From: Bacillota bacterium
Lineage (GTDB): Bacteria; Bacillota; Desulfotomaculia; Desulfotomaculales; Ammonificaceae
Direction of reading: 5' to 3'
NCBI GenBank assembly: GCA_040756575.1
Contig: JBFLYP010000008.1
Span: 79,523-103,522 of the forward strand
Length of the DNA stretch: 24,000 nt
The translations under genes and the position numbers were made by a program. Shown piece after piece: positions 1,582 to 13,170 of this stretch (positions are counted from its first letter, which is position 1; each line of letters begins with the position of its first letter). Below the pieces are notes generated by a model that was not told the DNA's origin, searched no databases, and worked only from the letters and a program-made list of their open reading frames with translations.

Positions 1582-1623
1582 GAACCTTGAATGCAAAACG
1601 TCGAACTTCGAACTATAAACGAG
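1582..1623 (+). repeat. Heptamer array R1 (degenerate, 6 phased units)
   Basis: gaacctt gaatgca aaacgtc gaacttc gaactat aaacgag, running straight into the RBS gaggag of the MNT gene. Confidence 0.7.
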
Positions 1624-1633
1624 GAGAATAAAG

Positions 1634-1990
1634 GTGGACCGGGAAAAACTTCCGGAAAAACGGGCGGCCTACACGAAGCTGCTCCGAGAGTCTCTGGAGC
1701 GGGCCGTCGCAGTACTTTCCTCATTAAAGGAAGTTGAGCGCGTCAGTCTCGTCGGTTCATATGCCTGCGGTCGGGCCGACCTGCTAACCGATCTCGACCT
1801 TTTGGTTGTGATGCGTACGAAGCGCCCGTTTCTTGAGCGGTTACGGGAGCTTTACAGTCTGCTGGCGCTCCCGGTAGACCTGGACCTTTTATGCTACACA
1901 CCCGAGGAACTTGACGCCTTAAAAGACCGGCCCTTTTTCAAAAAGTTGCTTCAGAAAGAAGTGGTGCTCTATGAGAAGAAGCCCTCTTGA
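1634..1990 (+). CDS. Minimal nucleotidyltransferase (MNT-type antitoxin of an HEPN-MNT module)
   Basis: GTG start after RBS gaggag. Pol-beta NTase motif [10 protein letters not shown]...DLDLLVV. Overlaps the downstream HEPN gene by 20 nt. Confidence 0.8.
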
Positions 1991-2375
1991 AGAAGGAAGA
2001 CGCTGGCTCGAGCAGGCCGGGGAAGACCTCCGCTGGGCCAAAGACCTGGCCGAGCGGGGCGGATACCACCTGGCCTGCTTTCTTGCCCAGCAGGTTAGCG
2101 AAAAGGCGGTCAAAGGTTTTCTTTACGCACAGGGTGAGGAGGTAGTGCTGGGCCACTCCATCGAACGGCTCTGTCACGCCGCCGCCCGCTGGGAACCGGA
2201 ATTTGCCGTGAAGGTGAAGCGCTGGTCCATCCTGGACGGCTATTACGTACCGACGCGTTACCCAAACGGCCTTCCAGATAGTATTCCTGCCCGCGTCTAC
2301 ACCCGTGATGCGGCCCGCGAAGCAGTGCGCTTAGCAGAAGAAGTTGTGGACTTTGTACGCCAGAAGCTCACATAG
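1971..2375 (+). CDS. HEPN domain protein (toxin partner of MNT)
   Basis: W..A..DL..A, GHSIERL and [13 protein letters not shown] are typical of HEPN (PF05168-like) proteins. Overlaps the MNT gene. Confidence 0.8.
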
Positions 2376-2378
2376 CCC

Positions 2379-2410
2379 AAACTTCGAACTAACAAACTTC
2401 GAACTATCTT
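2379..2410 (+). repeat. Heptamer array R2 (TTCGAAC type)
   Basis: aaacttcgaactaacaaacttcgaactatctt, immediately after the HEPN stop (2373-2375). Confidence 0.7.
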
Positions 2411-2457
2411 CTTATCGGTAGCACGCCGATCTTTCACAACTTGATACTGTTAACCGG

Positions 2458-2484
2458 CGCCTCCGCGAAATGGGCTACTTTTAG
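2458..2484 (+). pseudogene. 27-nt relic of the 3' end of a PAPS-reductase-family gene (..LREMGYF*)
   Basis: cgcctccgcgaaatgggctacttttag is near-identical to 8703-8729 and clearly related to 8047-8073 and 4286-4312. A heptamer array follows directly. Confidence 0.6.
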
Positions 2485-2535
2485 AACTTCGAACTGTTTA
2501 ACCTCGAACTATCTAACTTCGAACTATCGAACTAA
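2485..2535 (+). repeat. Heptamer array R3 (TTCGAAC type)
   Basis: aacttcgaactgtttaacctcgaactatctaacttcgaactatcgaactaa. Confidence 0.75.
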
Positions 2536-2552
2536 TGCTCAACCTCCCATAA

Positions 2553-2617
2553 GGTAAAGTATAATAAAAGAAAAAAACCGGCCCGTATCGAACGAAAAGT
2601 AATAGATGGGGGGTAAA
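2553..2617 (+). promoter_or_regulatory. Conserved about 65-nt leader, copy 1 (contains TATAAT at 2560-2565)
   Basis: ggtaaagtataat..aaaaaaaccggcccgtatcgaacgaaaagtaatagatgggggg aligns by eye with 10018-10078 at roughly 85% identity with a 4-nt indel. Confidence 0.45.
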
Positions 2618-2621
2618 CAGG

Positions 2622-2806
2622 AACTTACAGAACATCTACGAGTATATCGCTGCAGATTCCGAGGTTTACGCCAGCCCGGTTTGTAAAAAGTATCGTAAAA
2701 ACAAGCGAAAAGCTCACGAGCTTCCCGCTAATAAGTCGAATAGTTCCTGAATTTGCAGCCTACGGCTTGATAGCGGAAACAAGACGATTATCACGGTTAC
2801 GGTTAA
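2622..2806 (+). pseudogene. ParE/RelE-family toxin remnant (5'-truncated, frameshifted)
   Basis: One frame reads NLQNIYEYIAADSEVYASP. The +1 frame continues VKSIVKTSEKLTSFPLISRIVPEFAAYG. Together these match the ParE pattern (I..YIA.DSP..A ... L..FP..GR.VPE). No start codon or N-terminus. Confidence 0.4.
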
Positions 2807-2839
2807 GAAAAAAATTTTCTCCGAGAGGAGGAATGACTT

Positions 2840-3094
2840 GTGAAAATAGAGTACGATCCTGAAGTAGACGCCCTTTACATAGAGTTTCGCAGCGCGTCAC
2901 CCGTCCATAGCGTAGACATTGAAGAAGGAGTCAGCGTAGACCTGGACGAGGAACATCATATCGTTGGGGTAGAGATTCTGGACGCATCCGAAAGGCTTCG
3001 GGAAAACTTAGCCCGGATCGAGCTAACCGGCCTGCCGCTCTGGGAATTGCCCCTCAGGCGGCGCTTGCCGGCCTCATCCCCCGGTGCAGAATAA
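2840..3094 (+). CDS. DUF2283 domain protein
   Basis: GTG start after RBS gagaggagg. MKIEYDPEVDALYIEF...IVGVEILDAS is the characteristic DUF2283 signature. Confidence 0.75.
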   Translation: MKIEYDPEVDALYIEFRSASPVHSVDIEEGVSVDLDEEHHIVGVEILDASERLRENLARIELTGLPLWELPLRRRLPASSPGAE

Positions 3095-3116
3095 CCTGCG
3101 TAAGATGGGCTTTTGT

Positions 3117-3180
3117 TAACCCTGAACGCCGAACCTTGAACCCTGAACTTCGAACTTCGAACTATCTAACTTCGAACTAA
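3117..3180 (+). repeat. Heptamer array R4 (mixed types)
   Basis: taaccct gaacgcc gaacctt gaaccct gaacttc gaacttc gaactat ctaacttc gaactaa. Preceded by cctgcgtaagatgggcttttgttaa (3095-3119), a possible further relic of the ..LREMGYF* gene end. Confidence 0.8.
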
Positions 3181-3212
3181 GTTGCTGTTATTAAGAATGA
3201 GGTGAGACTTAC

Positions 3213-3437
3213 GTGGTAGACACAGCATCTTCTTCTCGCTTCCAAGAGGTCATCGAAATGGTCGAGACGTTACCGCCGGATGATCAGAAGCTATTGATCG
3301 AAATCATCCGGCAGCGCTTGATCCAGCACCGGCGCGCTGAAATAGCGGCGGAGGTCCAAGAAGCTCGTCATGCGTACCAGCGGGGCGAAGTCCGCCGGGG
3401 CACGGTAGGTGACCTCATGGAGGAACTGGCAGAGTGA
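3213..3437 (+). CDS. Putative antitoxin of the RelE-like toxin
   Basis: GTG start after RBS gaggtgag. Small acidic helical protein. Its stop overlaps the toxin start (GTGA). Confidence 0.55.
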   Translation: MVDTASSSRFQEVIEMVETLPPDDQKLLIEIIRQRLIQHRRAEIAAEVQEARHAYQRGEVRRGTVGDLMEELAE

Positions 3438-3718
3438 GAACCCTCGTCTGGAGTCCGACTTTCTTGCGTGCATTCAAGCGAACGGTTCGCCGGCAGCCGG
3501 AATTGCGAACAAGAGTTGAGCAAACCCTTAAACAGCTTGCCGAGGACCCTTTTCACCCCGCGCTGCATAGCCACAAATTGAAGGGAGAGTTAGCCGGCAC
3601 GTGGGCTTGCACCGTGGACTACAATAACCGTATCCTTTTCGAACTTGTCCGGAATCCAGAGTCAGGTGAGGAGGAGATTCTTCTCTTGACGATGGGCACC
3701 CACGATGAAGTGTACTGA
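3434..3718 (+). CDS. RelE/YafQ-family mRNA interferase toxin
   Basis: F.RAFKR..., DPFHPALHSHKLKGELAGTWACTVDYNNRILF...GTHDEVY is typical of RelE/StbE/YafQ-type toxins. Confidence 0.8.
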   Translation: MRTLVWSPTFLRAFKRTVRRQPELRTRVEQTLKQLAEDPFHPALHSHKLKGELAGTWACTVDYNNRILFELVRNPESGEEEILLLTMGTHDEVY

Positions 3719-3737
3719 ACAGGTTTCTTCTGTCCAA

Positions 3738-3846
3738 AGAGAGATCTTGGCGCTTATAAGCAGACTGGACCCAGGCAGAAAGAATTAAAAGTGTCATTCA
3801 CGGTTTCGTACGCTACCTCCGCAACCATAACAAACGTCGAACGTAG
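3738..3846 (+). pseudogene. 3' relic of a four-helix-bundle (23S rRNA IVS protein family) gene, frameshifted
   Basis: ..LGAYKQT.. then, after a frame shift, KSVIHGFVRYLRNHNKRRT*. Parallels LYKQTEEVKKTIYGFMRYLRSNPKKR* (9486-9859) and LYKQAEKTKSIICGLMRYLRTNPKP* (11740-11991). The stop lies in a heptamer unit. Confidence 0.4.
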
Positions 3847-3867
3847 AACGTAGAACGCAGAACGGCG
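3833..3867 (+). repeat. Heptamer array R5 (5 units)
   Basis: aacgtcg aacgtag aacgtag aacgcag aacggcg. Confidence 0.8.
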
Positions 3868-3872
3868 CAAAC

Positions 3873-4312
3873 AAGATCGCTACGACATTCACCGGCGGCA
3901 AGGACTCCACCACGCTCTTGCACATGCTCCGGCAGGTGGGCGGCGGGAAAGTGCCCGTCCGGGTGATAAAAATCGATACCGGCGCCGACTTCCCGGAGAT
4001 TTACGCCTTCGTTGACCGGCTCTTCACCGCCATCCGCTGGGACGAGCAGGAGGCCCGGCAGGATGAACAGTACTTCTCCGAGGGCAAAGACCCCGATCAC
4101 TTGCGGGTGCAGCCCACCCTGCACTTTAAGGAGATCGACATCTGGAGCTACATCCGCAAGTACGAACTTCCTTTCTGCGAGCTTTACCGCGCGGCTACCG
4201 CAGCCTTGACTGCGCGCCCTGCACCGGCCGCGGCGGCCCCAGCGAGCGTGGCGCCCGCTCCCGGGATAAAGAGGCCGCCATGCAGCGCCTGCGGGAGATG
4301 GGCTATTTCTAA
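3873..4312 (+). pseudogene. PAPS-reductase-family gene, decayed paralog of 7411-8073
   Basis: Nucleotide-level homolog of 7483-8073. It is 5'-truncated (lacks about the first 25 codons). It carries an in-frame 150-bp deletion (FVDRL|FTAIRW; the intact copy has 50 extra residues AKEWEL...GLKAV). A 1-nt deletion at ELYR|(RGYRSLDC) shifts the frame. Tracked ORF 3918-4358 is the resulting chimeric read-through. Confidence 0.85.
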
Positions 4313-4336
4313 CAAATGCGAGATAGGTTACAATAT
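4313..4336 (+). repeat. 24-nt shared joint caaatgcgagataggttacaatat, copy 1 (contains TACAAT)
   Basis: Identical to 8074-8097. Both copies follow the stop of a PAPS-reductase-family copy and precede different TA modules. Confidence 0.8.
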
Positions 4337-4372
4337 CTATAGATCCAAGTTTTTGTGAAAGGCAGAGGAAAA

Positions 4373-4609
4373 ATGAAAAAGGAGTTAATCCAATCGGATC
4401 CTGATGTTATGATGGGCAAACCGGTCATTGCCGGGACGCGGATTCCTGTTTCCCTGATTCTTGAAAAGCTTGCCGCCGGGGAAACGATGGAGCAGATCCT
4501 CCAGGCTCATCCGCGCTTGACGGAAGAGGCGATCCGGGCCGCCCTGGCTTTCGCCGCGGAAGCCGTTAAAGCCGATATAGCATACGCAATACGGGAAAAA
4601 GCCAAATGA
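4373..4609 (+). CDS. DUF433 domain protein (putative antitoxin)
   Basis: ATG at 4373 after ggcagagga. DPDVMMGKPVIAGTRIPVSLILEKLAAGET..ILQAHPRLTEEAIRAAL is the DUF433 signature. ATGA overlap with the next gene. Confidence 0.8.
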   Translation: MKKELIQSDPDVMMGKPVIAGTRIPVSLILEKLAAGETMEQILQAHPRLTEEAIRAALAFAAEAVKADIAYAIREKAK

Positions 4610-4974
4610 TCTTCCTGGCGGATGAAAGCGTTGACCAGCAGATCATCGACCGGTTAAGAGAACACGGCTACGTAGTGATAGCCGTCGTGGAAATGGAGCC
4701 GGGTATTAGCGATACAGCCGTGTTAGATTTAGCGAATGCGCGTGAGGCTTTGTTAGTTACAGCGGACAAAGACTTTGGTGAACTCGTCTTCCGCCAGCGC
4801 CGGGTAAGTAAAGGTATAATCCTGCTACGCTTAGCAGGCCTATCCCAAGAAAAGAAAGCGGCGCTGGTTGCCCAAGCGATAGAGACTCACTTAAAAGAAC
4901 TGGAAGGTTCGTTTGGGGTTATAACGCCTGGCTCCTTGCGTATCAGGAAAATGCGCGTCAAAAAAACTAACTAA
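4606..4974 (+). CDS. DUF5615 PIN-like protein (putative toxin partner of DUF433)
   Basis: MIFLADESVD..L...GY.V..V......SDTAVLDLA..REALLVTADKDFGEL matches the DUF5615/Mut7-C-like pattern. Confidence 0.75.
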   Translation: MIFLADESVDQQIIDRLREHGYVVIAVVEMEPGISDTAVLDLANAREALLVTADKDFGELVFRQRRVSKGIILLRLAGLSQEKKAALVAQAIETHLKELEGSFGVITPGSLRIRKMRVKKTN

Positions 4975-5145
4975 ACCTTGAACCCTGAACGTCGCACCTT
5001 GCACCTTGCACCTTGCACCTTGAACCTTGCACCTTGCACCTTGAACCTTGAACCTTGAACCTTGAATGTCGAACGTTGAACGTTGAACGGACCCCAAAGG
5101 TCCATCCCTTAAGCTGTAACGCCGAACGTTGAACGTCGAACGAGG
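4974..5145 (+). repeat. Heptamer array R6 (longest: 16 phased units, hairpin motif, 4 more units)
   Basis: aaccttg aaccctg aacgtcg (caccttg)x4 aaccttg (caccttg)x2 (aaccttg)x3 aatgtcg (aacgttg)x2, then motif 5085-5114, then aacgccg aacgttg aacgtcg aacgagg. Confidence 0.95.
5085..5114 (+). repeat. Conserved 30-nt hairpin motif, copy 1
   Basis: gaacGGACCccaaaGGTCCatcccttaagc: 5-bp stem GGACC/GGTCC with a 5-nt loop. Confidence 0.9.
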
Positions 5146-5158
5146 GGGGATAAAAAAC

Positions 5159-5395
5159 TTGAAACGCTTTAATTTAACCAGTCTCATATGGAAGGAAGAA
5201 CACGGCTACGTCTCAAAATGCCCGGAACTCGGCGTGGCCAGCGCCGGCGACACAATCGAAGAAGCATTTGCCAACCTGAAAGAAGCGGTAGAGCTTTATT
5301 TAGAAAACGCTAAAGAACTGGGCCTCTTGGATGAATTGAGTTTCGCGCTCAGGCCGGATAAATTTACCGCCTCTTTCGAGGTCGAGGCCCGGTGA
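5159..5395 (+). CDS. hicB: HicB-family antitoxin
   Basis: TTG at 5159 after RBS gagggggg. ..EEHGYVSKCPELGVASAGDTIEEAFANLKEAVELYLE is the HicB/UPF0150 N-domain pattern. Overlaps the hicA start. Confidence 0.7.
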   Translation: MKRFNLTSLIWKEEHGYVSKCPELGVASAGDTIEEAFANLKEAVELYLENAKELGLLDELSFALRPDKFTASFEVEAR

Positions 5396-5642
5396 CCCGG
5401 CTGCCTGTTTTATCCGATACCGAAGTGATCAGAATTCTCCTCAGACTCGGCTTCCAGTACGCTCCGAGGCGAGGAAAGGGCAGTCATATTGCGTTGTATA
5501 AAGCCGGCGAATCTGGACACCGGTTGCTGGTAATCGTACCGAAAAGAAAAGAAAAGAGATTCCCCGCGGCACCCTAATGGCAATTTTAGAACAGGCACAA
5601 GTCAGCCGTGAAGAATTCCTGCGCCTGCTTGGGAGAGAATAA
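5392..5642 (+). pseudogene. hicA: HicA-family toxin with a frameshift in an A-rich run
   Basis: Frame 1 gives ..VIRILLRLGFQYAPRRGKGSHIALYK...VIVPKRKEKRFPAAP* (stop 5575-5577). The expected HicA C-terminus EIPRGTLMAILEQAQVSREEFLRLLGRE* is in another frame (5556-5642). The switch lies in gaaaagaaaagaaaagag (5541-5558). Confidence 0.7.
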
Positions 5643-5660
5643 CGCTTCGTCTGCTGATTT

Positions 5661-5751
5661 GAACCCTAAACGCCGAACGCCGAACGTAGAACGCTAAACC
5701 TTAAACGTTGAACGTTGAACGTCGAACCTTGAACCTTGAACGTTGAACGAA
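5661..5751 (+). repeat. Heptamer array R7 (13 phased units)
   Basis: gaaccct aaacgcc gaacgcc gaacgta gaacgct aaacctt aaacgtt gaacgtt gaacgtc gaacctt gaacctt gaacgtt gaacgaa. Confidence 0.9.
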
Positions 5752-5776
5752 CCCCAGAGGTCCATCATTTTGAGCT
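5745..5776 (+). repeat. Hairpin motif, copy 2 (degenerate)
   Basis: gaacGAACCccagaGGTCCatcattttgagc: the stem carries one mismatch and the 3' tail has diverged. Confidence 0.7.
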
Positions 5777-5804
5777 TAAACGCTTAAGAGAGGAGGTAAA
5801 CCAA

Positions 5805-5888
5805 ATGGAGCTACTTCGCGAAGTGGCTGAAGCGCTGGACATGAAACAGGATTTTCTCGCCCGGAAAAGCCTGAACCTTGAACGTTGA
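5805..5888 (+). pseudogene. Truncated duplicate of the first about 23 codons of the 10082-10360 gene
   Basis: MELLREVAEALDMKQDFLARKSL is identical in protein to 10082 onward. It then runs into array R8 and stops (NLER*). It has its own RBS gaggagg. Confidence 0.75.
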
Positions 5889-5949
5889 ACGTTGAACGTT
5901 GAACGTCGAACGTAGAACGTCGAACGTAGTACGTCGCACGCCGAACGAG
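5873..5949 (+). repeat. Heptamer array R8 (11 units)
   Basis: gaacctt (gaacgtt)x3 gaacgtc gaacgta gaacgtc gaacgta gtacgtc gcacgcc gaacgag. Confidence 0.9.
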
Positions 5950-5957
5950 GTGAAAAA

Positions 5958-6218
5958 ATGGCCACCGAAAAAAAGGATTTAAAAGAAATCTTGCGCCTTG
6001 CCAGCCAGCTTCCGGAGGAGCAACAATTAGAACTTATTACCAAGTTGTCCTTACGCCTCCGCGTTAAAGGTGAAAGAGAAAATACCGGTAAACGATTGTC
6101 TGCTGCCAAAGAAGCACTCTTGGAAAAGACAAAGGGAGCTTGGGCCAACAATCCTGAAATAGAACGCGCGCTTGCAGAACTCAACCGGAGTTGGCAGGAA
6201 TGGGCAAAGGAATTGTAA
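5958..6218 (+). CDS. Putative antitoxin (VapB-position) of PIN toxin
   Basis: ATG after gaggtgaaaaa. Its N-terminus MATEKKDLKEILRLASQLPEEQQLELITKLS is paralogous to 10827-11057. Overlaps the PIN gene. Confidence 0.55.
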   Translation: MATEKKDLKEILRLASQLPEEQQLELITKLSLRLRVKGERENTGKRLSAAKEALLEKTKGAWANNPEIERALAELNRSWQEWAKEL

Positions 6219-6592
6219 TTGATACCGGCGTTATAATTGCTCACCTGAGAGCAGCCGGCAAAACAAAGACCTCTTTCCAGGAGGCTATTGAGCGGTATCC
6301 AAAATGTTATATATCGTCAATCACTGCCTGGGAAATCGAATACGGTGCCTGTCGCGCCGGGCGCCCTTCAGATCTCACGGATATTTTGGGATTGGTTAAA
6401 GTGTTGCCTTTTGACCTGGAAGATGCACGCGTAGCTGCAAAAGTGCACGCGGAACTGAAATCGCGCAACCAAGAAATAGGCATCCGGGACGTCTTTATCG
6501 CCGGAACCTGCCTGGCAAATGGTCTGCCTCTTTTAACCGCCAACGTCAAGCACTTCCGGCGAGTAAGTAACTTAGAGGTAATACAACCTTGA
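6200..6592 (+). CDS. vapC: PIN domain ribonuclease toxin (VapC family)
   Basis: GIVIDTGVIIAHL (first acidic residue), ...ITAWEIEYG..., ...IGIRDVFIAGTCLANGLPLLTANVKHF. ATG at 6200 preferred over TTG at 6191. The stop TGA lies in the first heptamer. Confidence 0.8.
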   Translation: MGKGIVIDTGVIIAHLRAAGKTKTSFQEAIERYPKCYISSITAWEIEYGACRAGRPSDLTDILGLVKVLPFDLEDARVAAKVHAELKSRNQEIGIRDVFIAGTCLANGLPLLTANVKHFRRVSNLEVIQP

Positions 6593-6692
6593 ACCTTAAA
6601 CGTTGAACTTTGAACCTTGAATGTTGAACGTTGAACGTTGAACGGACCCCAGAGGTCCATCCCTTAAGCCTGAACCTTGAACGTTGAACGAA
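6585..6692 (+). repeat. Heptamer array R9 (8 units, hairpin motif, 3 units)
   Basis: aaccttg aacctta aacgttg aactttg aaccttg aatgttg aacgttg aacgttg, then motif 6640-6669, then gaacctt gaacgtt gaacgaa. Confidence 0.9.
6640..6669 (+). repeat. Hairpin motif, copy 3
   Basis: gaacGGACCccagaGGTCCatcccttaagc. Confidence 0.9.
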
Positions 6693-6709
6693 AAAAGGAG
6701 TGACCTGCG

Positions 6710-6907
6710 ATGAAAAAGTCTCTGAAAAACTACGACGACCTCAACGTGACAGAAAAGCGGATCAGCTATCTCTTAGGAGCACGGTTGCGAGAAACAGACA
6801 GGGTCAAGAATGCGATGAAAAAACAGGATGGGATCAGGAAGAAGCATCCTGCACCTGAAGGTTGGGATAGCGCTTCCGTAATTAGAAGTTGGCGGGAAAC
6901 CCGGTGA
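6710..6907 (+). CDS. Putative antitoxin (VapB-position)
   Basis: ATG after RBS aaggag. Small charged protein. Its stop overlaps the GTG of the downstream PIN fragment (GTGA). Confidence 0.5.
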   Translation: MKKSLKNYDDLNVTEKRISYLLGARLRETDRVKNAMKKQDGIRKKHPAPEGWDSASVIRSWRETR

Positions 6908-7310: not shown

Positions 7311-7311
7311 C

Positions 7312-7393
7312 GAACCTTGAACCTTGAACGTTGAACCTTGAACGGACCCCAAAGGTCCATCAACCTAAGCTTTAACGTTGAACGTTGAACAGA
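7312..7393 (+). repeat. Heptamer array R10 (4 units, hairpin motif, 3 units)
   Basis: gaacctt gaacctt gaacgtt gaacctt, then motif 7340-7370, then taacgtt gaacgtt gaacaga. Confidence 0.9.
7340..7370 (+). repeat. Hairpin motif, copy 4
   Basis: gaacGGACCccaaaGGTCCatcaacctaagc (tail variant). Confidence 0.85.
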
Positions 7394-7410
7394 CAGGAGG
7401 CCCCCTACCC

Positions 7411-8073
7411 GTGAGTCTGAACGAAAAAGAAGCGAAAAGTCTGAAGCTGATTCGCGAAACCCTCGACCGCTTCGGCCCGGACAAAGTCGCTACCACCTGG
7501 ACCGGCGGCAAGGACTCCACCACCCTCCTGCACATGCTCCGGCAGGTGGGCGGCGGCAAAGTCCCCGTCCGGGTGATAAAAATCGATACCGGCGCCGACT
7601 TCCCGGAGATTTACGCCTTCGTGGACCGGCTGGCGAAGGAATGGGAGTTAGACCTCCACGTCCTCCGCAACGAAGAAGCGATAAAAACCATCAAAGTGGC
7701 GGAGGACCCGCTCCAGTGCTGCTACCAGCTCAAGACCGTGCCGCTCCTCAACTTCATCCGGGAGCAGGGCTTGAAAGCGGTCTTCACCGCCATCCGTTGG
7801 GATGAGCAGGAGGCCCGGCAGGATGAGCAGTACTTCTCCGAGCGGAAGGATCCCGACCACCTGCGGGTGCAGCCCCTCCTGCACTTCCGGGAGATCGACA
7901 TCTGGAGCTACATCCGGAAGTACGATTTGCCCTTCTGCGAGCTCTACCGCCGGGGCTACCGCAGCCTCGACTGCGTGTCCTGCACCGGCCGCGGCGGCCC
8001 CAGCGAACGCGACGCCCGCTCCCGGGACAAGGAGGCCGCCATGCAGCGCCTGCGGGAGATGGGCTATTTCTAA
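7411..8073 (+). CDS. PAPS reductase / PP-loop ATP pyrophosphatase family protein (intact copy)
   Basis: GTG at 7411 after RBS caggagg; the tracked TTG at 7378 lies in the repeat. PP-loop-like TWTGGKDSTTLLHML. CysH/CysD-like LRVQPLLHFREIDIWSYIRKYDLPFCELYRRGYRSLDCVSCT. Confidence 0.85.
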   Translation: MSLNEKEAKSLKLIRETLDRFGPDKVATTWTGGKDSTTLLHMLRQVGGGKVPVRVIKIDTGADFPEIYAFVDRLAKEWELDLHVLRNEEAIKTIKVAEDPLQCCYQLKTVPLLNFIREQGLKAVFTAIRWDEQEARQDEQYFSERKDPDHLRVQPLLHFREIDIWSYIRKYDLPFCELYRRGYRSLDCVSCTGRGGPSERDARSRDKEAAMQRLREMGYF

Positions 8074-8097
8074 CAAATGCGAGATAGGTTACAATAT
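8074..8097 (+). repeat. 24-nt shared joint, copy 2 (TACAAT at 8090-8095)
   Basis: Identical to 4313-4336. Confidence 0.8.
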
Positions 8098-8121
8098 AGA
8101 CTGAGAGGGGTGCGCCAGGTA

Positions 8122-8391
8122 ATGAAGATTTTCTATACAGTCGTCCTGAGAAAACTCTCCGACCAGTGGGTAGCCCTGTGCCTGGAAAACGGTTGCGTGG
8201 GACAGGGAACCACCCGGGAGGAAGCCGTAGAGAAGCTCAGATCCGCGGTTTCTTCCATAATGGAGGCAGCACATGACGATCCGGATATATTTGTGGCACC
8301 GGTACCGATTAAGGAACTTCATGAGTTTCTGACCGTCGGCGGCGTCGATCCTGTGGCCGAAACCTTTGAGCTAAGGGCCGTAAATGCCTAA
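8122..8391 (+). CDS. hicB: HicB-family antitoxin
   Basis: ATG at 8122. MKIFYTVVLRKLSDQWVALCLENGCVGQGTTREEAVEKLRSAV is the HicB N-domain pattern. Overlaps hicA by 8 nt. Confidence 0.7.
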   Translation: MKIFYTVVLRKLSDQWVALCLENGCVGQGTTREEAVEKLRSAVSSIMEAAHDDPDIFVAPVPIKELHEFLTVGGVDPVAETFELRAVNA

Positions 8392-8626
8392 GAACATTCC
8401 GTCGCTGAAGCCCCGCCAGTTGGTCCGTCTGTTGGAGGGAGCGGGCTGTCGCTTTTACAGGGAGGGCAAAGGCGATCACCGCCTTTACGTGCGCTACGCT
8501 GAAGGAAAGAAGTTGGTGGTTCCCATAGATATGGGGCTTACGGAACTCTCCCCAGTATATATCTTGCGCGTACTCAGACAGTTCAGGTTCACAGACGCAG
8601 AAATTGAAGAAATGTTGAAATCATAG
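8384..8626 (+). CDS. hicA: HicA-family mRNA interferase toxin
   Basis: LKPRQLVRLLEGAGCRFYREGKGDHRLYV is the YcfA/HicA pattern. Paired with the upstream HicB. Confidence 0.8.
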   Translation: MPKNIPSLKPRQLVRLLEGAGCRFYREGKGDHRLYVRYAEGKKLVVPIDMGLTELSPVYILRVLRQFRFTDAEIEEMLKS

Positions 8627-8729
8627 CCTGTGCCCCTGCACCGGCCGCGGCGGGCCTACCGAGCGCGGCGCCCGTTCCCGGGATAAAGAGGCAGCCATGC
8701 AGCGCCTCCGCGAAATGGGCTACTTTTAA
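8627..8729 (+). pseudogene. About 100-bp relic of the PAPS-reductase-family 3' end
   Basis: Aligns with 7971-8073 (tgcaccggccgcggcgg...atgcagcgcct.cg.ga.atgggcta.tt.taa). Starts right after the hicA stop. Its own stop (8727-8729) is the first unit of array R11. Confidence 0.8.
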
Positions 8730-8800
8730 CGTTGAACGTTGAACGTTGAACGTTGAACGTTGAACGGACCCCAGAGGTCCATCCCTTAAGCTTTAACGAG
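8727..8800 (+). repeat. Heptamer array R11 (5 units, hairpin motif, 1 unit)
   Basis: taacgtt (gaacgtt)x4, then motif 8762-8791, then tt taacgag. Confidence 0.9.
8762..8791 (+). repeat. Hairpin motif, copy 5
   Basis: gaacGGACCccagaGGTCCatcccttaagc, identical to copy 3. Confidence 0.9.
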
Positions 8801-8809
8801 GTGAAAAAA

Positions 8810-9034
8810 ATGGGACTCGAAAACACAAGAGACGAACTGCTCCTAAAACAAATCAACACCTTAGAACGCGAAGTAGAGCGCCTCAAGCGGAACCTTCTTC
8901 ATAACCTAACTGCGAGGACCGGCCGAAAAAAAGCCAAACCCTCTCTGTTTGGAAGCGTCCGGAGCGGCGACATTGCCGATGAAGAGATCCAAAAGGCAAA
9001 GACGGCTTTGTTTAGAGACCTGGAGGATCTGTAG
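8810..9034 (+). CDS. Putative antitoxin (VapB-position)
   Basis: ATG at 8810 after gaggtgaaaaaa; the tracked upstream start lies in the repeat. Coiled-coil-like small protein immediately upstream of the PIN gene. Confidence 0.5.
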   Translation: MGLENTRDELLLKQINTLEREVERLKRNLLHNLTARTGRKKAKPSLFGSVRSGDIADEEIQKAKTALFRDLEDL

Positions 9035-9051
9035 CGCTTATGGAGGAGGAT

Positions 9052-9438
9052 ATGCTGTATGTTCTTGATACCCATGTGCTCATTTGGTATTTCACCGGTA
9101 GTAGACGCCTTAAACAGCAGCTTAAAGAACTCATTGATCATGTTCGGTCAGCAGGTGGACGTCTGTTAGTCCCTACGATAGTGCTGGCCGAAGCAATGGA
9201 CATCGCCGAAAAAGGCCGTGTACGCTTCGACTTCACCGAAATGTACCGGTTGATCAAGGAAGAACCGGAGTTCGAAATCGTCAGCTTCAGCCCGGATATC
9301 CTTGAAGAGTCGACGCGGATCAGTAATATTCCTGAAATTCACGACCGAATCATCGTCGCTACAGCTAAATTTTACCAGGCAGGTATACTAACAAAAGACA
9401 GGATAATCCGTAGCTCAGGAGAGACAGAAACGCCTTGA
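9052..9438 (+). CDS. vapC: PIN domain ribonuclease toxin (VapC family)
   Basis: MLYVLDTHVLIWYF..., ...VPTIVLAEA..., ...HDRIIVATA.....ILTKD. RBS ggaggagga. The stop TGA lies in the first heptamer. Confidence 0.8.
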   Translation: MLYVLDTHVLIWYFTGSRRLKQQLKELIDHVRSAGGRLLVPTIVLAEAMDIAEKGRVRFDFTEMYRLIKEEPEFEIVSFSPDILEESTRISNIPEIHDRIIVATAKFYQAGILTKDRIIRSSGETETP

Positions 9439-9485
9439 ACGCCGCACGCCGAACGTAGAACGTAGAACGTCGAACGGTGAAACAA
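9437..9485 (+). repeat. Heptamer array R12 (7 units, in phase up to the next ATG)
   Basis: gaacgcc gcacgcc gaacgta gaacgta gaacgtc gaacggt gaaacaa, followed directly by ATG 9486. Confidence 0.9.
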
Positions 9486-9859
9486 ATGCCAATCGAAAAA
9501 TTCGAAGACATCCAGGCCTGGCAGCTTGCCCGGGAGTTGACCCAGGGGTGTATACAGCAACAAACCGGAAGGAATTCAGCCGTGACTATGGCCTGCGCGA
9601 CCAGGTGCAGCGCGCCGCCGTCCCCATAATGGCCAATATCGCGGAGGGATTCGACAGCCAGAGCAACCAGACGTTCCTGCAGTTCCTGAGCTACGCGGTC
9701 CGGTCGGCTACCGAGGTCCAGTCCCATCTCTACGTCGCCCTGGACCAAGGCTACATAAACGAAACTACGTTTGCCGAATTGTACAAACAAACGGAGGAAG
9801 TTAAAAAAACGATTTACGGCTTTATGCGCTACCTGCGCTCCAACCCCAAAAAACGTTGA
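9486..9859 (+). pseudogene. Four-helix-bundle protein (23S rRNA intervening-sequence protein family), apparent 1-nt frameshift near codon 21
   Basis: ATG 9486 gives MPIEKFEDIQAWQLARELTQG, the typical family N-terminus (F.DL.vWQ.A..L). The rest of the family signature (VYTAT..F..DYGLRDQVQRAAVPIMANIAEGF...FLQFLSYAVRSATEVQSHLYVA) is in the frame of tracked ORF 9548-9859. Could instead be a sequencing error or a GTG-initiated shorter product. Confidence 0.7.
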
Positions 9860-10016
9860 ACTATCTAACTTCGAACTAATAAACTTCGAACTTCGAACTA
9901 TCCAACTTCGAACTTCGAACTATCCAACTTCGAACTTCGAACTATCTAACTTCGAACTTCGAACTTCGAACTAACAAACTTCGAACTAATTAACCTTGAA
10001 CCTTGAACGTTGAACG
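9854..10016 (+). repeat. Heptamer/octamer array R13 (TTCGAAC type, 22-nt higher-order repeat; last 3 units TTGAAC type)
   Basis: cgttgaa ctatctaa cttcgaa ctaataaa (cttcgaa)x2 ctatccaa (cttcgaa)x2 ctatccaa (cttcgaa)x2 ctatctaa (cttcgaa)x3 ctaacaaa cttcgaa ctaattaa ccttgaa ccttgaa cgttgaa. Confidence 0.95.
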
Positions 10017-10030
10017 GGGTAAAGTATAGT
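10003..10030 (+). promoter_or_regulatory. Candidate sigma-A-type promoter: TTGAAC (from the last heptamers), 16 nt, TATAGT
   Basis: TTGAAC at 10003-10008 and TATAGT at 10025-10030, inside conserved leader copy 2 (10018-10078). Sequence resemblance only. Confidence 0.4.
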
Positions 10031-10081
10031 AAAAAAAACCGACCAGTACCGAACGAAAAATAATAGATGGGGGTAGACGAA

Positions 10082-10360
10082 ATGGAACTGCTTCGGGAAG
10101 TGGCTGAAGCGCTCGATATGAAACAGGATTTTCTCGCCCGGAAAAGCCTGACCTTATACCTGGAAAAAGAACTGCGCGACACGGAAGCAGCGATTTTTAA
10201 AATCACCTCCAGATACGGCGTTAAGTCAGTATTTGAACTTGATGAAAGACTGAAACAAGGGAAACTGAAAGAAGAAGATATGCTTGACGACTTCCTTGAA
10301 CTTGACTACCTGGAGGCAAAAAGGGATAAGATCCGCCGTGTCCTGGAGAAGATTCAATGA
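10082..10360 (+). CDS. Putative antitoxin-position protein upstream of the DUF6516-like gene
   Basis: ATG at 10082 after gatggggg. Helical charged protein MELLREVAEALDMKQDFLARKSL.... ATGA overlap with the next gene. Confidence 0.5.
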   Translation: MELLREVAEALDMKQDFLARKSLTLYLEKELRDTEAAIFKITSRYGVKSVFELDERLKQGKLKEEDMLDDFLELDYLEAKRDKIRRVLEKIQ

Positions 10361-10737
10361 TAACGCTGGAAAAGCTCCGGAGAATCGCCGAAGTCGAGTA
10401 TTGTGATATAGTGGCATTTACGGAGATTATGCAAAATAAGCTCCGGATTTACCTGATAGATAAGTCATTTGTTGATGTTGGGTTTTCAGTAAAGGTCCCT
10501 GGCCGCTACTCCTATCACTGGGAAAGACGACACGTAGATCAAACGATCTATCGCCATGATAATTTTCCGGACCCACGTTGGAAGGCGGTCTCGACCTTTC
10601 CTAAGCACTTCCATAAAGGGTCGGAGAACCAAGTGGAGGAGAGTCACATCAATGACGACCCAGGGACAGGCATCCGTCAATTTATGGAATTCGTCCAAAG
10701 ATTGATTAGAGGTCTAACTTCGAACTGTAAACCTTGA
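10357..10737 (+). CDS. DUF6516-like (TumE-type) putative toxin
   Basis: YSYHWERRH...IYRHDNFPDPRWKAVSTFPKHFHKGSE resembles the DUF6516 pattern (Y.YHW......RyDNaPH......fPhHkH). Family recalled from memory, not searched. The last codons (LTSNCKP*) are repeat units. Confidence 0.5.
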   Translation: MITLEKLRRIAEVEYCDIVAFTEIMQNKLRIYLIDKSFVDVGFSVKVPGRYSYHWERRHVDQTIYRHDNFPDPRWKAVSTFPKHFHKGSENQVEESHINDDPGTGIRQFMEFVQRLIRGLTSNCKP

Positions 10738-10817
10738 ACGAGGAGTGTTTTTGATGATCGAACTTCGAACTATCTAACTTCGAACTTCGAACTATCGAAC
10801 TTCGAACTATTAACCGA
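10714..10817 (+). repeat. Heptamer array R14 (two blocks: 10714-10743 and 10758-10817)
   Basis: ctaacttcgaactgtaaaccttgaacgagg ... cgaacttcgaactatctaacttcgaacttcgaactatcgaacttcgaactattaaccgagg. Confidence 0.85.
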
Positions 10818-10826
10818 GGTGAAAAA

Positions 10827-11057
10827 ATGGCCACCGAAAAGAAAAAAATATCAGAGCTTGTGCGACTCGCCGGCAGACTTCCGGTAAACGAACAATTAGA
10901 ATTAATCGCCAGACTTTCTGCCCAGCTTGCAGGTAAGAGAGCCGCTCACATTGAAAAAAGAACATGGATGGAAATGGCGGGTCTCGGCGCCGAAATTTGG
11001 AAAGACGTTGACGCCCAGGAGTATGTCCGCCGGGAGAGAGCAAGTTGGGAAGATTAG
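10827..11057 (+). CDS. Putative antitoxin (VapB-position), paralog of 5958-6218
   Basis: Same leader gaggtgaaaaaATGgccaccgaaaa. N-terminus MATEKKKISELVRLAGRLPVNEQLELIARLS. Confidence 0.55.
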   Translation: MATEKKKISELVRLAGRLPVNEQLELIARLSAQLAGKRAAHIEKRTWMEMAGLGAEIWKDVDAQEYVRRERASWED

Positions 11058-11536
11058 CGGCGATCCTCAAAGCGTATCGCACTGTCGCACTGGATACCGC
11101 GGTTTTTATCTACCACTTCGAGAAAAACGAGAAGTATAGTGTAATAACTGAAGAAATTTTCTCGCGTCTGGACAAAGATAAAAACTTCGCTGCGGTTACT
11201 TCGGTCATCACCGTGCTGGAAGTTTGCGTAAAGCCTATTAAAGAATCGCGGCAGGACCTAGCGACCGAGTACACACAAAAATTGCTTTATGATGATAAAC
11301 TGGCAACCTGGGTTGTTGATGGAAATATAGCCCAAAAAGCTGCCGAAATCAGGGCTAAGTACGGTATAAGGACTCCTGATGCGATTCAAGTAGCCACAGC
11401 CATTACAGCGGAAGCAGATGTTTTTATCACCAATGACACCGCCTTAAAGAAAATCGAAGAAATCGAAGTACTGGTCCTCAAAGAACTTGCCGCCCCAGTG
11501 GAAGAGGCTAACACTCCAGCAAACGCCGAACGTTGA
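11045..11536 (+). CDS. vapC: PIN domain protein (VapC-like toxin); start uncertain
   Basis: VALDTAVFIYHF..., ...VITVLEV..., ...RTPDAIQVATAITAEADVFITND. The stop TGA lies in a heptamer unit. Confidence 0.7.
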   Translation: MGRLAAILKAYRTVALDTAVFIYHFEKNEKYSVITEEIFSRLDKDKNFAAVTSVITVLEVCVKPIKESRQDLATEYTQKLLYDDKLATWVVDGNIAQKAAEIRAKYGIRTPDAIQVATAITAEADVFITNDTALKKIEEIEVLVLKELAAPVEEANTPANAER

Positions 11537-11569
11537 ACGCCGAACGCCGAACGTAGAACGCAGAAAGGA
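11521..11569 (+). repeat. Heptamer array R15 (7 units)
   Basis: aaacgcc gaacgtt gaacgcc gaacgcc gaacgta gaacgca gaaagga, running into RBS aggagg. Confidence 0.9.
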
Positions 11570-11582
11570 GGCTTTAATTGCA

Positions 11583-11792
11583 ATGGATTCTGTCAAGCAA
11601 ACGGCCATCGAAGCCATAAAGCGGCTCCCTGACGGATGTTCCTTGGAGGACATTATGTATCAGGTCTATTTTATCTCGCAGGTATTTGAGGGTTTAAGGG
11701 ACGCTCAGGAAGGCCGGGTAATAACCAGCGAAGAATTAGATGCAGCGCGCCGCCGTCTCGGTTATGGCAAATATAGCGGAGGGCTTCGATAG
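11583..11792 (+). pseudogene. Antitoxin-like ORF whose 3' end is replaced by a junction into a four-helix-bundle gene fragment
   Basis: MDSVKQTAIEAIKRLPDGCSLEDIMYQVYFISQVFEGLRDAQEGRVITSEEL looks like a small addiction-module component. From about 11736 the DNA is homologous to 9603 onward, read out of frame. Confidence 0.5.
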
Positions 11793-11991
11793 CCAGAGCA
11801 ACCAGGTGTTTTTACAGTTCCTGACCTACGCGGTCAGGTCGGCTACCGAGGTCCAGTCGCATCTCTACGTCGCCCTGGACCAAGGCTATGTAACCAAAGA
11901 TACCTTTGATAACTTGTACAAGCAGGCGGAAAAAACGAAGAGCATTATATGCGGCCTTATGCGGTATCTCCGCACAAACCCTAAACCTTAA
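11736..11991 (+). pseudogene. Four-helix-bundle (23S rRNA IVS protein family) gene, 5'-truncated copy
   Basis: QRAAVSVMANIAEGFDSQSNQVFLQFLTYAVRSATEVQSHLYVALDQGYV... parallels 9606-9859. It lacks about the first 40 codons and any RBS. Confidence 0.7.
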
Positions 11992-12065
11992 ACCTTAAAC
12001 CTTAAACCTTAAACCTTGAACCTTGAACGTCGAACGTTGAACCTTGAACGTTGAACGCAGAACTG
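11975..12065 (+). repeat. Heptamer array R16 (13 units; last array of the island)
   Basis: caaaccc (taaacct)x5 tgaacct tgaacgt cgaacgt tgaacct tgaacgt tgaacgc agaactg, then RBS ggagga. Confidence 0.95.
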
Positions 12066-12078
12066 GAGGAAACTTGCG

Positions 12079-13170
12079 ATGGCCGCAGATTATAGCCATC
12101 TAAAAACGCGCATCCAGGGATGGCTCTTCGAAAAAGTGGTTAGGTACCTGTTACGACTCAACGATTACACCATCATTTCTCTTGACTCATTAGCGGGTAA
12201 AGCAGAGAAATATTACCGGGACAGGGGAAAAGGTTTGGAAATACGCGGGCGCGGCGAGTGGCATCAGATAGATGCGGCAGGGCAGTTTCAATTTATACCG
12301 CCGTTTGTATATCAAATTCGCCTTCTTTCTGAAGCAAAATGTTACCGGCAGACCGCAGTGGGTCTTCCTATTGTTCGCGGATTTGTAGGCGCCCTTAAAG
12401 ACATCAGCGAAAACTACTTTACGGATGTTGATGACCCCGGGAATAATGATTATAACCTCCGGTTTACCGATTGTGGTGCTATTTTTTCCACCTCGGGATT
12501 TTCAGATGAAGCGGAAAATTACGCTTTTGCTCACGGTATCAAGTTAATCAGTTATAAAAATTTACCGATTATGCGGGATATCACTGAATGCATCTTCAAT
12601 TTCGTCGACTCGTTAGAATCTTTCCTCCCCCACATAGCCAAGAGAGAACCTGAACTCCGGCGAGAGATTTGTAACATATTACAGGGTTCTGGCTTTAATG
12701 ATATGCGAGACCACAGTTCGCTGCCACCACAATTAAATCAGCACATTCTCAAATTGCGCGACATACTCTTTGAAATCAAATTTTCCGCCGTCGGTTTAGC
12801 GGCAGGAGGGTTCCCGGTGCACTTGGTCGGCACGCAGGAGTTCCCACGCAAGGCGGTTGCAGAACGTGACCAAGTCGAATGCCACATTTACCACGAACAA
12901 GGCAACCCGTTCCATGTCAGGCTGGTAGACCGGGTCTGGAGCGCTTATTTTTCAGTACCCGAGGTGATGATGAGCAAATTTTTAGCTAATAGAGAAATGA
13001 TGGTTGAATTCAAAGGTCGAAGCTTATCCTTTATTGACATACCCATCAAGATTAATGGTATGCGCCGCATTATCAGGCTTGAGCTGGATCCGAAGTGGCT
13101 GGAACAGGTCAGGAAAACCGCCAAGGACCGGCAATCGAGAAAACAGCGAGGGGCGTCAGATAAGGGGTAG
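12079..13170 (+). CDS. Mrr-like restriction-endonuclease-fold (PD-(D/E)xK) N-terminal domain protein with uncharacterised C-terminal half
   Basis: WLFEKVVRYLLRLNDYTI (FE..v..LL...GY), HQIDAAG (D), LLSEAKCY ((E/Q)xK), VRGFVGAL, CGAIFSTSGFSDEAENYAFAHGIKLISY (g.fiTts.Ft..A..yA....I.Li). I recognise no motifs in residues about 175-363. Visibly more AT-rich than its neighbours. Confidence 0.5.
   Translation: MAADYSHLKTRIQGWLFEKVVRYLLRLNDYTIISLDSLAGKAEKYYRDRGKGLEIRGRGEWHQIDAAGQFQFIPPFVYQIRLLSEAKCYRQTAVGLPIVRGFVGALKDISENYFTDVDDPGNNDYNLRFTDCGAIFSTSGFSDEAENYAFAHGIKLISYKNLPIMRDITECIFNFVDSLESFLPHIAKREPELRREICNILQGSGFNDMRDHSSLPPQLNQHILKLRDILFEIKFSAVGLAAGGFPVHLVGTQEFPRKAVAERDQVECHIYHEQGNPFHVRLVDRVWSAYFSVPEVMMSKFLANREMMVEFKGRSLSFIDIPIKINGMRRIIRLELDPKWLEQVRKTAKDRQSRKQRGASDKG

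Follow-up and report, generated by a model that had tools for sequence, protein, structure and literature searches.

The DNA considered here is a stretch of 24,000 nucleotides (hereafter the window: contig JBFLYP010000008.1 of GenBank assembly GCA_040756575.1, positions 79,523 to 103,522) from an uncultured, deep-subsurface-type member of the Bacillota related to Ammonifex and Desulfotomaculum. The WbaP protein encoded in it is identical to a protein of a metagenome-assembled genome (MAG) listed at NCBI as 'Bacillota bacterium', and its next relatives are found in Desulfofundulus, Desulfotomaculum, Moorella, and Ca. Desulforudis. Between wbaP and a gene for an Mrr-like protein, the window carries an island of 11.6 kb with about 18 co-oriented cassettes of toxin-antitoxin (TA) type, all on the + strand, and tandem arrays of a degenerate heptanucleotide, GAACNTN, lie in the gaps between them. 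An earlier examination of the letters alone (hereafter the sequence-only reading) had described about 18 TA/defence-type units on this strand, and Pfam profiles upheld that gene content. Comparison with related loci showed that the cassettes differ in content and order from genome to genome, and that many of their joints coincide with the arrays.

The left flank of the island is the 3' part of wbaP (83-1498, + strand; Pfam Bac_transf, 1.9e-60), which encodes an undecaprenyl-phosphate sugar phosphotransferase; the complete gene, on contig L122, corresponds to 517 aa. The right flank is the Mrr-like gene, of restriction-endonuclease fold (12079-13170, + strand; Mrr_cat, 9.3e-5). Pfam annotation of the window and of the 8 kb upstream of it placed genes for an SLH protein, Wzy_C, Wzz, and a tyrosine kinase before the island and genes for glycosyltransferases, Wzy, WecG, and epimerases behind it. 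Cell-envelope polysaccharide genes thus stand on both sides, and the island therefore splits an operon of this kind, a setting which had been supposed from the sequence alone and which the flanking Bac_transf and Hexapep genes confirm together with these wider neighbors. No tRNA or tmRNA integration site was found in the window, and an origin at such a site was rejected.

Tandem Repeats Finder detected period-7 arrays, with super-periods of 14, 15, 21, and 22 nt, only within 2378-12063, and the sole other tandem repeat in the window was an unrelated 12-nt repeat at 18384. A phased scan yielded 26 runs of at least three NAACNNN units between 1596 and 12066, which merge into about 20 arrays with GAAC always on the + strand. 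Three consecutive GAACNTN units were matched 18 times in the window, compared with 0.00 times in 100 dinucleotide shuffles. The arrays therefore do sit in the inter-cassette gaps (about 20 of them within 1582-12066), as the sequence-only reading had it; its further statement that none occurs outside the island holds for the window, but not for the genome, which has others in the ~7.5 kb upstream of the window. A census of units from the window and from viral and MAG loci showed that unit positions 1-4 and 6 are conserved and that positions 5 and 7 are free. Two flavors can be told apart, GAACGTN/GAACCTT with period 7 and GAACTTC-GAACTAT(C) with periods 7, 15, and 22, and runs of a single variant (GCACCTT seven times, AAACCTT five times, GAACGTT five times) indicate slippage in situ. 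The GAACGTT and GAACTTC arrays are quasi-palindromic and fold well (-20 kcal/mol for GAACGTT), whereas the GAACCTT and GAACGCC/GTA arrays do not fold, so there is no structure common to all arrays. Rfam returned no match for the whole window at the gathering threshold nor for the island at E<=1, and identity of the repeats with a known RNA family was rejected. With respect to translation, the arrays close 46 of 60 forward reading frames versus 19 of 60 reverse frames, and a Shine-Dalgarno (SD) sequence with a start codon directly adjoins 11 of the 20 arrays of the window. Terminator-like sites on the + strand were no commoner than in shuffles.

Five of the gaps also contain an element that was absent from the earlier description, a module of ~36 nt, GAACGGACCCCARAGGTCCATC-N4-TAAGC, with a 5-bp hairpin (GGACC-N5-GGTCC). 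The module pattern matched 50 stretches in seven MAGs (Ammonifex sp. SURF_55, Desulfotomaculum sp. UWMA-0229, a Thermoanaerobacteraceae MAG, and four 'Bacillota bacterium' MAGs), and a covariance model found about 150 copies in 409 kb of MAG loci. Its stem is paired in 93.9% of cells, and only six cells change on both sides, mostly in the outermost pair; a variant stem, CTGAC/GTCAG, occurs in the gap between the Wzz and kinase genes. The stem is thus conserved mainly by sequence, with little covariation, and the pair counts speak neither for nor against a structural role. Between co-directional long open reading frames (ORFs), 25 modules were sense and 20 antisense; with ~45% of the modules antisense in this setting, and with the second island of MAG044 antisense to most of its cassettes, a strict sense-leader element was rejected as a general rule. 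There were no matches to the module in IMG/VR, and carriage of the module by phages was likewise rejected. In a contig of ~12.9 kb from MAG044_2 (L154:4870-5030), the loop of one module is split by a GC-rich palindromic insert of ~110 nt (GGCCTGCCTGTGCG...CGCAGACAGGTCC), which resembles a second small element nested in the first; a related sequence lies before HicBA in island 1 of MAG044, a MAG described below.

The Pfam set of the island comprises MNT plus HEPN, DUF2283, a RelE/YafQ-like toxin, DUF433 plus DUF5615, two HicB plus HicA pairs, four PIN genes (one truncated), TumE (the family formerly named DUF6516), one full PAPS_reduct gene with relics, two 23S_rRNA_IVP four-helix-bundle copies, and Mrr_cat. 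Judging from adjacent small antitoxin and toxin genes with recognized toxin folds, the cassettes are predicted to be type II TA modules. Exact-protein look-ups gave no identical protein on record for the PIN protein at 9040-9438, for DUF5615, or for TumE.

All the features that follow lie on the + strand. A -10-like box, TATACT, at ~1548 stands ahead of the first array (1582-1623), which runs into the SD sequence GAGGAG of the MNT gene and has a counterpart after wbaP in the metagenome contig L175. The MNT (1634-1990; NTP_transf_2, 1.1e-7) and HEPN (1971-2375; 1.8e-25) genes form the first cassette (1634-2375). Two GAACTTC/GAACTAT arrays (2378-2406 and 2485-2534) then enclose a 26-nt relic of a PAPS-reductase 3' end (2459-2484), recognized by direct reading against 8706-8727. 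The next unit (2553-3094) holds a leader duplicate (2571-2612, matching 10032-10073; internal duplicate family D13), a decayed ParE-like stretch at ~2600-2790 assigned by visual inspection alone, and the DUF2283 gene (2840-3094; 5.2e-18). The two unit flavors meet in the array at 3117-3179 (phased scan), which is followed by an antitoxin gene (3213-3437) and a RelE/YafQ-like toxin gene (3434-3718; YafQ_toxin, 1.7e-6; ParE-like, 1e-4) with 94% identity to MAG044. At the 3' edge of the array 3832-3866 (phased scan; family D10) begins a copy of the PAPS-reductase gene (3863-4336; PAPS_reduct, 2.9e-13; families D6, D9, and D10), 5'-truncated, internally deleted, and with the 3' leader ggttacaatat. 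The DUF433 (4355-4609; 1.1e-24) and DUF5615 PIN-like (4606-4974; 1.5e-24) genes make up the cassette 4355-4974. Behind them lies a long array with a GCACCTT sub-run attributed to local slippage, a hairpin module (5085-5116), and a short array ending in an SD sequence (4973-5144 in all). The cassette 5129-5643 consists of HicB (5129-5395) and a possibly frameshifted HicA (5392-5577), both assigned by Pfam, at 97% identity to MAG044 and 87% to L175.

Farther to the right, an array with a module (5661-5790; module 5745-5776) precedes a 5' fragment of a TumA-like antitoxin gene (5806-5872), 90% identical to 10082-10151 (family D12), which ends at the next array (5873-5947, itself ending in the SD sequence GAGGTG) and is not found at that position in L175. 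The following antitoxin gene (5958-6218) and PIN toxin gene (6191-6592; 3.4e-18; cassette 5958-6592) end with a stop codon in the first unit of an array, which is succeeded by a module (6640-6671) and a second array (6584-6692 in all). In the unit 6710-7310 an antitoxin gene (6710-6907) is followed by the truncated PIN gene (6889-7167; 6.9e-6, covering only profile positions 2-70 of 120) and a further relic. An array, a module (7340-7371), and a second array (7312-7393 in all) lead into the full-length PAPS-reductase-family gene (7378-8073; PAPS_reduct, 7.2e-38) and the second HicB (8122-8391) and HicA (8384-8626) pair (cassette 8122-8626; Pfam). Five identical GAACGTT units with a module (8727-8800; module 8762-8793) stand before an antitoxin gene (8810-9034) and a PIN gene (9040-9438; 2.6e-14), a cassette (8810-9438) with 93% identity to L175 and 90% to locus L137 of Ammonifex sp. 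SURF_55. An array ending in an SD sequence (9437-9478) precedes the frameshifted four-helix-bundle gene (9486-9859; 23S_rRNA_IVP, 3.7e-27; TIGR02436, 1.7e-27), and the longest array (9858-10018; Tandem Repeats Finder score 179) consists of 22-nt super-units, GAACTTC GAACTTC GAACTATC. The TumA-like antitoxin gene (10082-10360) and the TumE toxin gene (10357-10737; 5.6e-15) form the cassette 10082-10737, whose TumE stop codon is overlapped by two arrays ending in an SD sequence (10715-10817). Then come an antitoxin gene (10827-11057) and a PIN gene (11045-11536; 3e-17), together 10827-11536 and 93% identical to MAG044, with the PIN stop codon inside the array 11521-11562; an antitoxin relic fused to a 3' fragment of the second four-helix-bundle gene (11583-11991; Pfam; family D8); and the last array, of 13 units (11976-12066), ending in the SD sequence GGAGG of the Mrr-like gene. 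Logan contigs of run SRR29635774 that bear the two flanks of the island both end inside arrays, at window positions 3175 and 11989; these ends could mark either a repeat-induced break of the assembly or real heterogeneity of cassette content in the population.

The internal duplicates of the window are diverged (66-94% identity) and truncated, and for families D6 and D8-D12 they break at arrays, in agreement with what had been noticed from the sequence alone. In family D6, direct repeats of the PAPS-reductase 3' end (7951-8097 and 8607-8753) bracket the HicBA pair at 8122-8626, and this arrangement is a signature of homology-driven insertion. Relics of this 3' end adjoin arrays at four places in the window (7951-8097, 8607-8753, 2459-2484, and 4190-4336). 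They occur in at least two other genomes as well (L159:7560-7590; L170:190-230), where arrays and then a sulfatase gene follow, an order seen in L159 and in MAG044; an ancestral pairing of PAPS reductase with sulfatase, in a locus for a sulfated polysaccharide, is thereby suggested. Because this order recurs in two other genomes, the full-length PAPS-reductase-family gene is probably a resident of the polysaccharide locus and not a cassette. The alternative assignment of the copies as defence cassettes was rejected, since there were only weak BrxP and SspD matches, below all NCBIfam cut-offs.

In the genome of the window, GAACNNN arrays were found in four operon gaps within ~7.5 kb before the window, namely before the SLH gene, between the Wzy_C and Wzz genes (with a perfect module), between the Wzz and tyrosine-kinase genes, and, with eight units, before wbaP. 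In related MAGs, array and module stand directly upstream of hemB, engA/der (in two MAGs), proS, and a lon-like protease gene, and also of genes for a radical-SAM enzyme, an amidohydrolase, a sulfatase, and Wzy. The engA/der sites (L134:1994-2140 and L138:1262-1790, from DeMMO5_7 and MAG163) may be a retained orthologous site or independent insertions. Four consecutive GAACNTN units were matched in at least 120 IMG/VR stretches. One of these contigs is truly of phage origin, with portal, capsid, and adaptor genes, and there the gaps between structural genes are taken up exactly by the arrays. In the phage locus L093, arrays at 2594-2649, 4731-4765, and 6582-6623 directly precede the capsid gene and other structural genes, and the last unit supplies the ATG (GAACATG). 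In 82 of 259 viral arrays, the start of an ORF of at least 80 aa lies no more than 20 nt from the 3' end, versus 31 of 259 in the antisense control, and the arrays of the MAG loci show the same start-codon polarity (23 versus 6); cruder orientation statistics for viral loci, with a lower limit of 110 aa for ORFs, were rejected as too noisy. The same arrays thus occur in ordinary intergenic regions (operon gaps, housekeeping genes, and phage genes), the very finding that the sequence-only reading had named as contrary to its proposal, and they are therefore not specific to accessory cassettes or to the island.

Two related arrangements were seen in these loci. One is a second heptamer family, CAGAANN with its complement NNTTCTG, which forms inverted array pairs and potential long hairpins in the same intergenic regions, often 5' of GAAC arrays (L165:1-140, L132:930-1040, L147:1-90, and L174:3963-4011 and 5203-5347); it accounts for about a fifth of the 123 period-7 arrays in the MAG loci. 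The other is found in several IMG/VR contigs of ~60% GC, in which GAACNTN arrays form divergent pairs around an AT-rich core of ~30 nt. These pairs recur every 1-3 kb, often beside a GCCCC-TTCG-GGGGC hairpin (L099, at 590-676, 1484-1573, 2569-2657, and 11289-11376; L022; L014; L071), and they represent a different architecture of the same heptamer.

In one relative, the metagenome contig L175, the same platform carries a different stack. It has wbaP (70% identical in DNA to its syntenic counterpart in the window), an island of only 4.6 kb with about seven cassettes (3077-7679), the Mrr-like gene at the same position with 92% identity, and the same downstream genes at 88%. Its cassettes follow the order four-helix bundle, PAPS reductase, HicBA, VapBC, a TA pair absent from the window, TumA, and VapBC. 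The hexapeptide acetyltransferase gene directly to the right of the Mrr-like gene (window 13246-13779) is missing from L175 (L175:8733-8839), so the polysaccharide genes themselves vary at the right border too. MAG044 has the cassettes of the window at 87-98% identity, in another order and in a different polysaccharide locus. A second island of MAG044, 17 kb long and 14 kb from the first, lies in a polysaccharide locus with genes for a sulfatase, GT2, Wzy, GT4, an OLD nuclease, and MurJ; it contains segmental duplicates, and its cassettes stand in both orientations, most of them antisense to the arrays. A recurrent 29-nt motif, GAACGTGTCAAGGAACCGTCCCCTGTCAC, closes many of the arrays of this second island (L150 and L131; e.g., L150:3700-3760), and none was seen in the window. 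In MAG044_2, a gene for an OLD-family nuclease (AAA_15 plus OLD-like TOPRIM; L133:838-2670) lies among glycosyltransferase genes and beside glycosyltransferase fragments, and it may be a further case of a defence gene that has inserted among polysaccharide genes. In a MAG with a WbaP of 68% identity, wzy follows wbaP directly and there is no island. Cassette content and order are thus not fully conserved among the window, L175, and MAG044, as would follow from the gain, loss, and shuffling of cassettes that had been proposed.

Inside the island, 18 of 41 ends of homology blocks fall within 10 nt of an array, versus 12.2% expected (binomial p = 4.5e-7). The homology blocks to MAG044 overlap at 3146-3158, inside the array 3117-3179 in which the two flavors meet, and this overlap marks a recombination joint. 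In a three-way alignment, the homology of cassettes stops on the 5' side at the last heptamer, GAACGAGG, a unit that doubles as the SD sequence, and on the 3' side ~30 nt after the stop codon. The arrays between orthologous cassettes are wholly different in unit composition and number among the three genomes. The sequence-only reading had the arrays define the cassette boundaries; boundaries and breakpoints do coincide with arrays, but some joints lie at the PAPS-reductase 3' end and leader instead. Breakpoints at variable positions, in arrays that differ between genomes, fit exchange by homology or slippage and not site-specific recombination.

We consider it fairly probable (a probability of about 0.6) that STRR-like repeats (named after the short tandemly repeated repetitive sequences of cyanobacteria) spread across the lineage act as portable sites of homology or slippage, at which general recombination shuffles TA cassettes without an integron-like enzyme. 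The arrays would be a dispersed, fast-evolving, lineage-wide intergenic repeat of the STRR or heptanucleotide simple-sequence-repeat type, often accompanied by the hairpin module, and co-oriented copies flanking every cassette would provide portable stretches for homology, slippage, or microhomology. Ordinary recombination between arrays could then delete, duplicate, truncate, swap, or reorder cassettes without a dedicated integrase, and other shared segments, such as the PAPS-reductase 3' end, would serve as homology in like manner. Conceivable routes are exchange of the RecA type, slippage during replication, and Campbell-type insertion of DNA that had been excised or imported. Since sense arrays close reading frames and supply an SD sequence, each cassette may be translationally insulated and re-initiated in a read-through operon transcript, and such insulation could explain how an operon can bear in its midst a stack of co-oriented cassettes without terminators, if the island is indeed co-transcribed. 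TA addiction may then retain the stack, as is supposed by analogy with the TA cassettes of chromosomal integrons.

Several observations weigh against this interpretation. All comparators are metagenome assemblies or MAGs, and the Logan assembly breaks inside arrays; because repeats can cause mis-joins, some of the differences in order could be artefacts of assembly. The enrichment of breakpoints is partly what any intergenic feature would give, and the block ends are not independent of each other. The orientation of arrays is uniform within each island (19+, 20+, and 37-), in contrast with modules at ~25 sense to 20 antisense in housekeeping gaps; random acquisition fails to account for such uniformity, which needs local duplication, orientation-preserving exchange, or a directional mechanism. 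Finally, the arrays of MAG044 island 2 are mostly antisense to the cassettes, and an insulator or leader role is therefore not general.

Among the alternatives, the one that survives best, though we regard it as distinctly less probable, is that the arrays are primarily cis elements at the RNA level, in leaders and spacers, as tandem sites for an RNA-binding protein or as unstructured platforms for standby or re-initiation, and that their position at cassette boundaries is incidental, the variability of the cassettes being due to ordinary recombination. The start-codon polarity in viral and MAG loci given above argues for such a role, as do arrays that end in an SD sequence or even in the start codon itself (GAACATG) and arrays before genes with high expression (the capsid gene and engA, for example); a similar proposal has been made for TAACTGA repeats (PMC4679880). 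In housekeeping gaps between co-directional genes, however, ~45% of the modules are antisense, as they are throughout the second island of MAG044; the unit flavors differ greatly in folding (-20 kcal/mol for GAACGTT, none for GAACCTT), and the covariation of the hairpin is weak. A role at the RNA level alone would also leave the homology breaks inside arrays unexplained. Such a role is plausible, and it is compatible with recombination at the arrays, neither being exclusive of the other.

A dedicated recombinase, possibly encoded in trans (Xer, RAYT, or other), that uses the arrays or the module as an att-like substrate would make the island an integron analogue, and this we think improbable. 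It would agree with the strict co-orientation of arrays and modules within each of four islands, with cassettes in both orientations in MAG044 island 2 (as in the TA cassettes of chromosomal integrons), with cassette sets and orders that differ at the conserved wbaP-mrr site, and with a module conserved in sequence across seven MAGs, as expected of a site recognized by a protein. Against it, arrays and modules of the same kind stand, in both orientations, ahead of engA, hemB, proS, the lon-like gene, and members of the island's own operon; the module is present in only five of the ~20 gaps of the window; the junctions lie at variable positions in arrays of unrelated unit composition, and some of them outside arrays, at the PAPS-reductase 3' end and leader; and GAACNTN arrays are found between phage structural genes as well. 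No recombinase was found among the Pfam-annotated genes of the window, the upstream 8 kb, and L175 or among the MAG044 ORFs of at least 250 aa (40 kb), and hence no candidate among the annotated genes of the examined loci; the lack of an integrase encoded in cis is compatible with an enzyme acting in trans. That the island has no integrase, transposase, tRNA, or attC-like site had been noted from the sequence, and the statement is upheld, for integrase, transposase, and attC-like site in its vicinity as well. In a broader form of this idea, the arrays and the GGACC-N5-GGTCC module would be the substrate of a trans-acting recombinase, of a nuclease, or of a slippage-prone, heptamer-laying polymerase that exchanges TA/defence cassettes; we hold this to be equally doubtful. 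If it were true, the trans-acting activity would keep the arrays co-oriented, and subsurface Bacillota, and possibly phages, would possess a tandem-repeat functional analogue of the integron.

It is similarly unlikely that the apparent shuffling arose from short-read misassembly or from population-mixture chimeras at the arrays of a real island: Logan contigs of the same run do end inside arrays, several arrays exceed 90-160 nt, and every comparator is a metagenome assembly, but shared cassettes differ by 2-15% between assemblies and the sets differ (7 versus 18), which speaks for different genomes and not for alternative paths through one assembly graph, while the duplicates of the window are diverged and truncated and thus point to old events, the unit sequences of the arrays are heterogeneous and locally unique, and L175 retains both flanks.

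Heptanucleotide intergenic repeats have reportedly been catalogued since 1990 and are said to have been shown in 2007 to be over-represented in many bacteria, but to our knowledge no function or consequence has been established for them. Such repeats are already known, then, as are TA-rich cassette arrays. What appears to be new is a GAAC-core family with a hairpin module in subsurface Bacillota, with GAAC-core heptamers also in phage contigs. The comparative evidence that heptamer repeats form the joints of a shuffled, integrase-less TA island at a fixed operon site likewise appears to be new. On recombination between arrays, this locus would give heptamer repeats a concrete consequence, as joints at which TA cassettes are shuffled, duplicated, and truncated without an integrase; the repeats would let an accessory stack of 11.6 kb sit inside an operon; and the repeat class is extended to uncultured deep-subsurface Bacillota and to phage contigs. 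A new recombination system is not established by these data, and for the different kind of cassette-accretion platform that the sequence-only reading had put forward we found no evidence, the arrays being general repeats and the joints not fixed.

Sedentary chromosomal integrons resemble the island in outward form. They hold IntI-dependent attC cassette arrays rich in TA modules, and clusters of attC sites lacking integron-integrases (CALINs) lack the enzyme. The island shares with them long arrays of small, mostly co-oriented cassettes, many TA pairs, a uniformly oriented repeated separator, and a cassette content and order that vary among relatives at a fixed platform, here the wbaP-mrr site. 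The separators of the island, however, are tandem 7-mers of variable number that also stand beside housekeeping genes, and the positions of the junctions are not fixed. No Phage_integrase-type gene (intI) was found among the Pfam-annotated genes of the window, the upstream 8 kb, the downstream genes, and the large MAG044 ORFs, and direct reading between the cassettes revealed no attC site (57-141 nt, with R''/L''-L'/R' boxes), the gaps consisting of direct 7-nt arrays with or without the module. With neither intI nor attC, the island falls outside the definition of an integron or CALIN. The match of GTTGAAC, in the GAACGTT flavor only, to the integron core site GTTRRRY was rejected as a coincidence, being of low information and having no paired inverse site.

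The pdif sites of Acinetobacter plasmids are 28-bp XerC/D sites of 11-6-11 structure in alternating orientation. The modules that they delimit are, like the cassettes of the island, integrase-less, include TA pairs, and have short repeated bounds, and they are thought to be moved by host functions. The boundary repeats of the island are instead direct tandem heptamers, and no 11-6-11 dif-like site was seen on reading. Dispersed elements of the REP/BIME, BOX, and ERIC type are known hot spots of recombination and rearrangement. Like them, the module is a short conserved hairpin dispersed in intergenic gaps in both orientations with variable tandem sub-units (cf. boxB); unlike REP/BIME, it is a 5-bp hairpin embedded in 7-nt arrays, with no paired inverted copies seen. 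No RAYT-type gene was seen in the loci examined, although no whole-genome search for RAYT was made, and the analogy with REP/BIME would fit the module only loosely.

The closest likeness is to the STRR-type heptamers, which include the cyanobacterial STRR sequences. Heterogeneous (GGGANTN)n arrays, also with unit positions 1-4 and 6 conserved, occur in Xanthomonas and Nostoc (Rehm 2015, PMC4692102), and TAACTGA repeats lie directly upstream of start codons in Beggiatoaceae, cyanobacteria, and Bacteroidetes (MacGregor 2015, PMC4679880). Both groups of repeats, these and GAACNTN, consist of tandem 7-nt units with a conserved core and free positions, occupy many intergenic sites per genome, often just upstream of start codons, vary strongly in length and sequence between close relatives, and coexist with other heptamer families, here CAGAANN. 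The features that characterize the STRR type, namely tandem degenerate units, many intergenic copies independent of the function of the neighboring genes, and rapid variation at orthologous sites, are all found in GAACNTN. We found no earlier report of a GAAC-core heptamer family in the papers searched. Its arrays differ from the known STRR-type repeats in their GAAC core, in their occurrence in Bacillota MAGs and phage contigs, in the embedded hairpin module, and in their position at the joints of a shuffled TA array.

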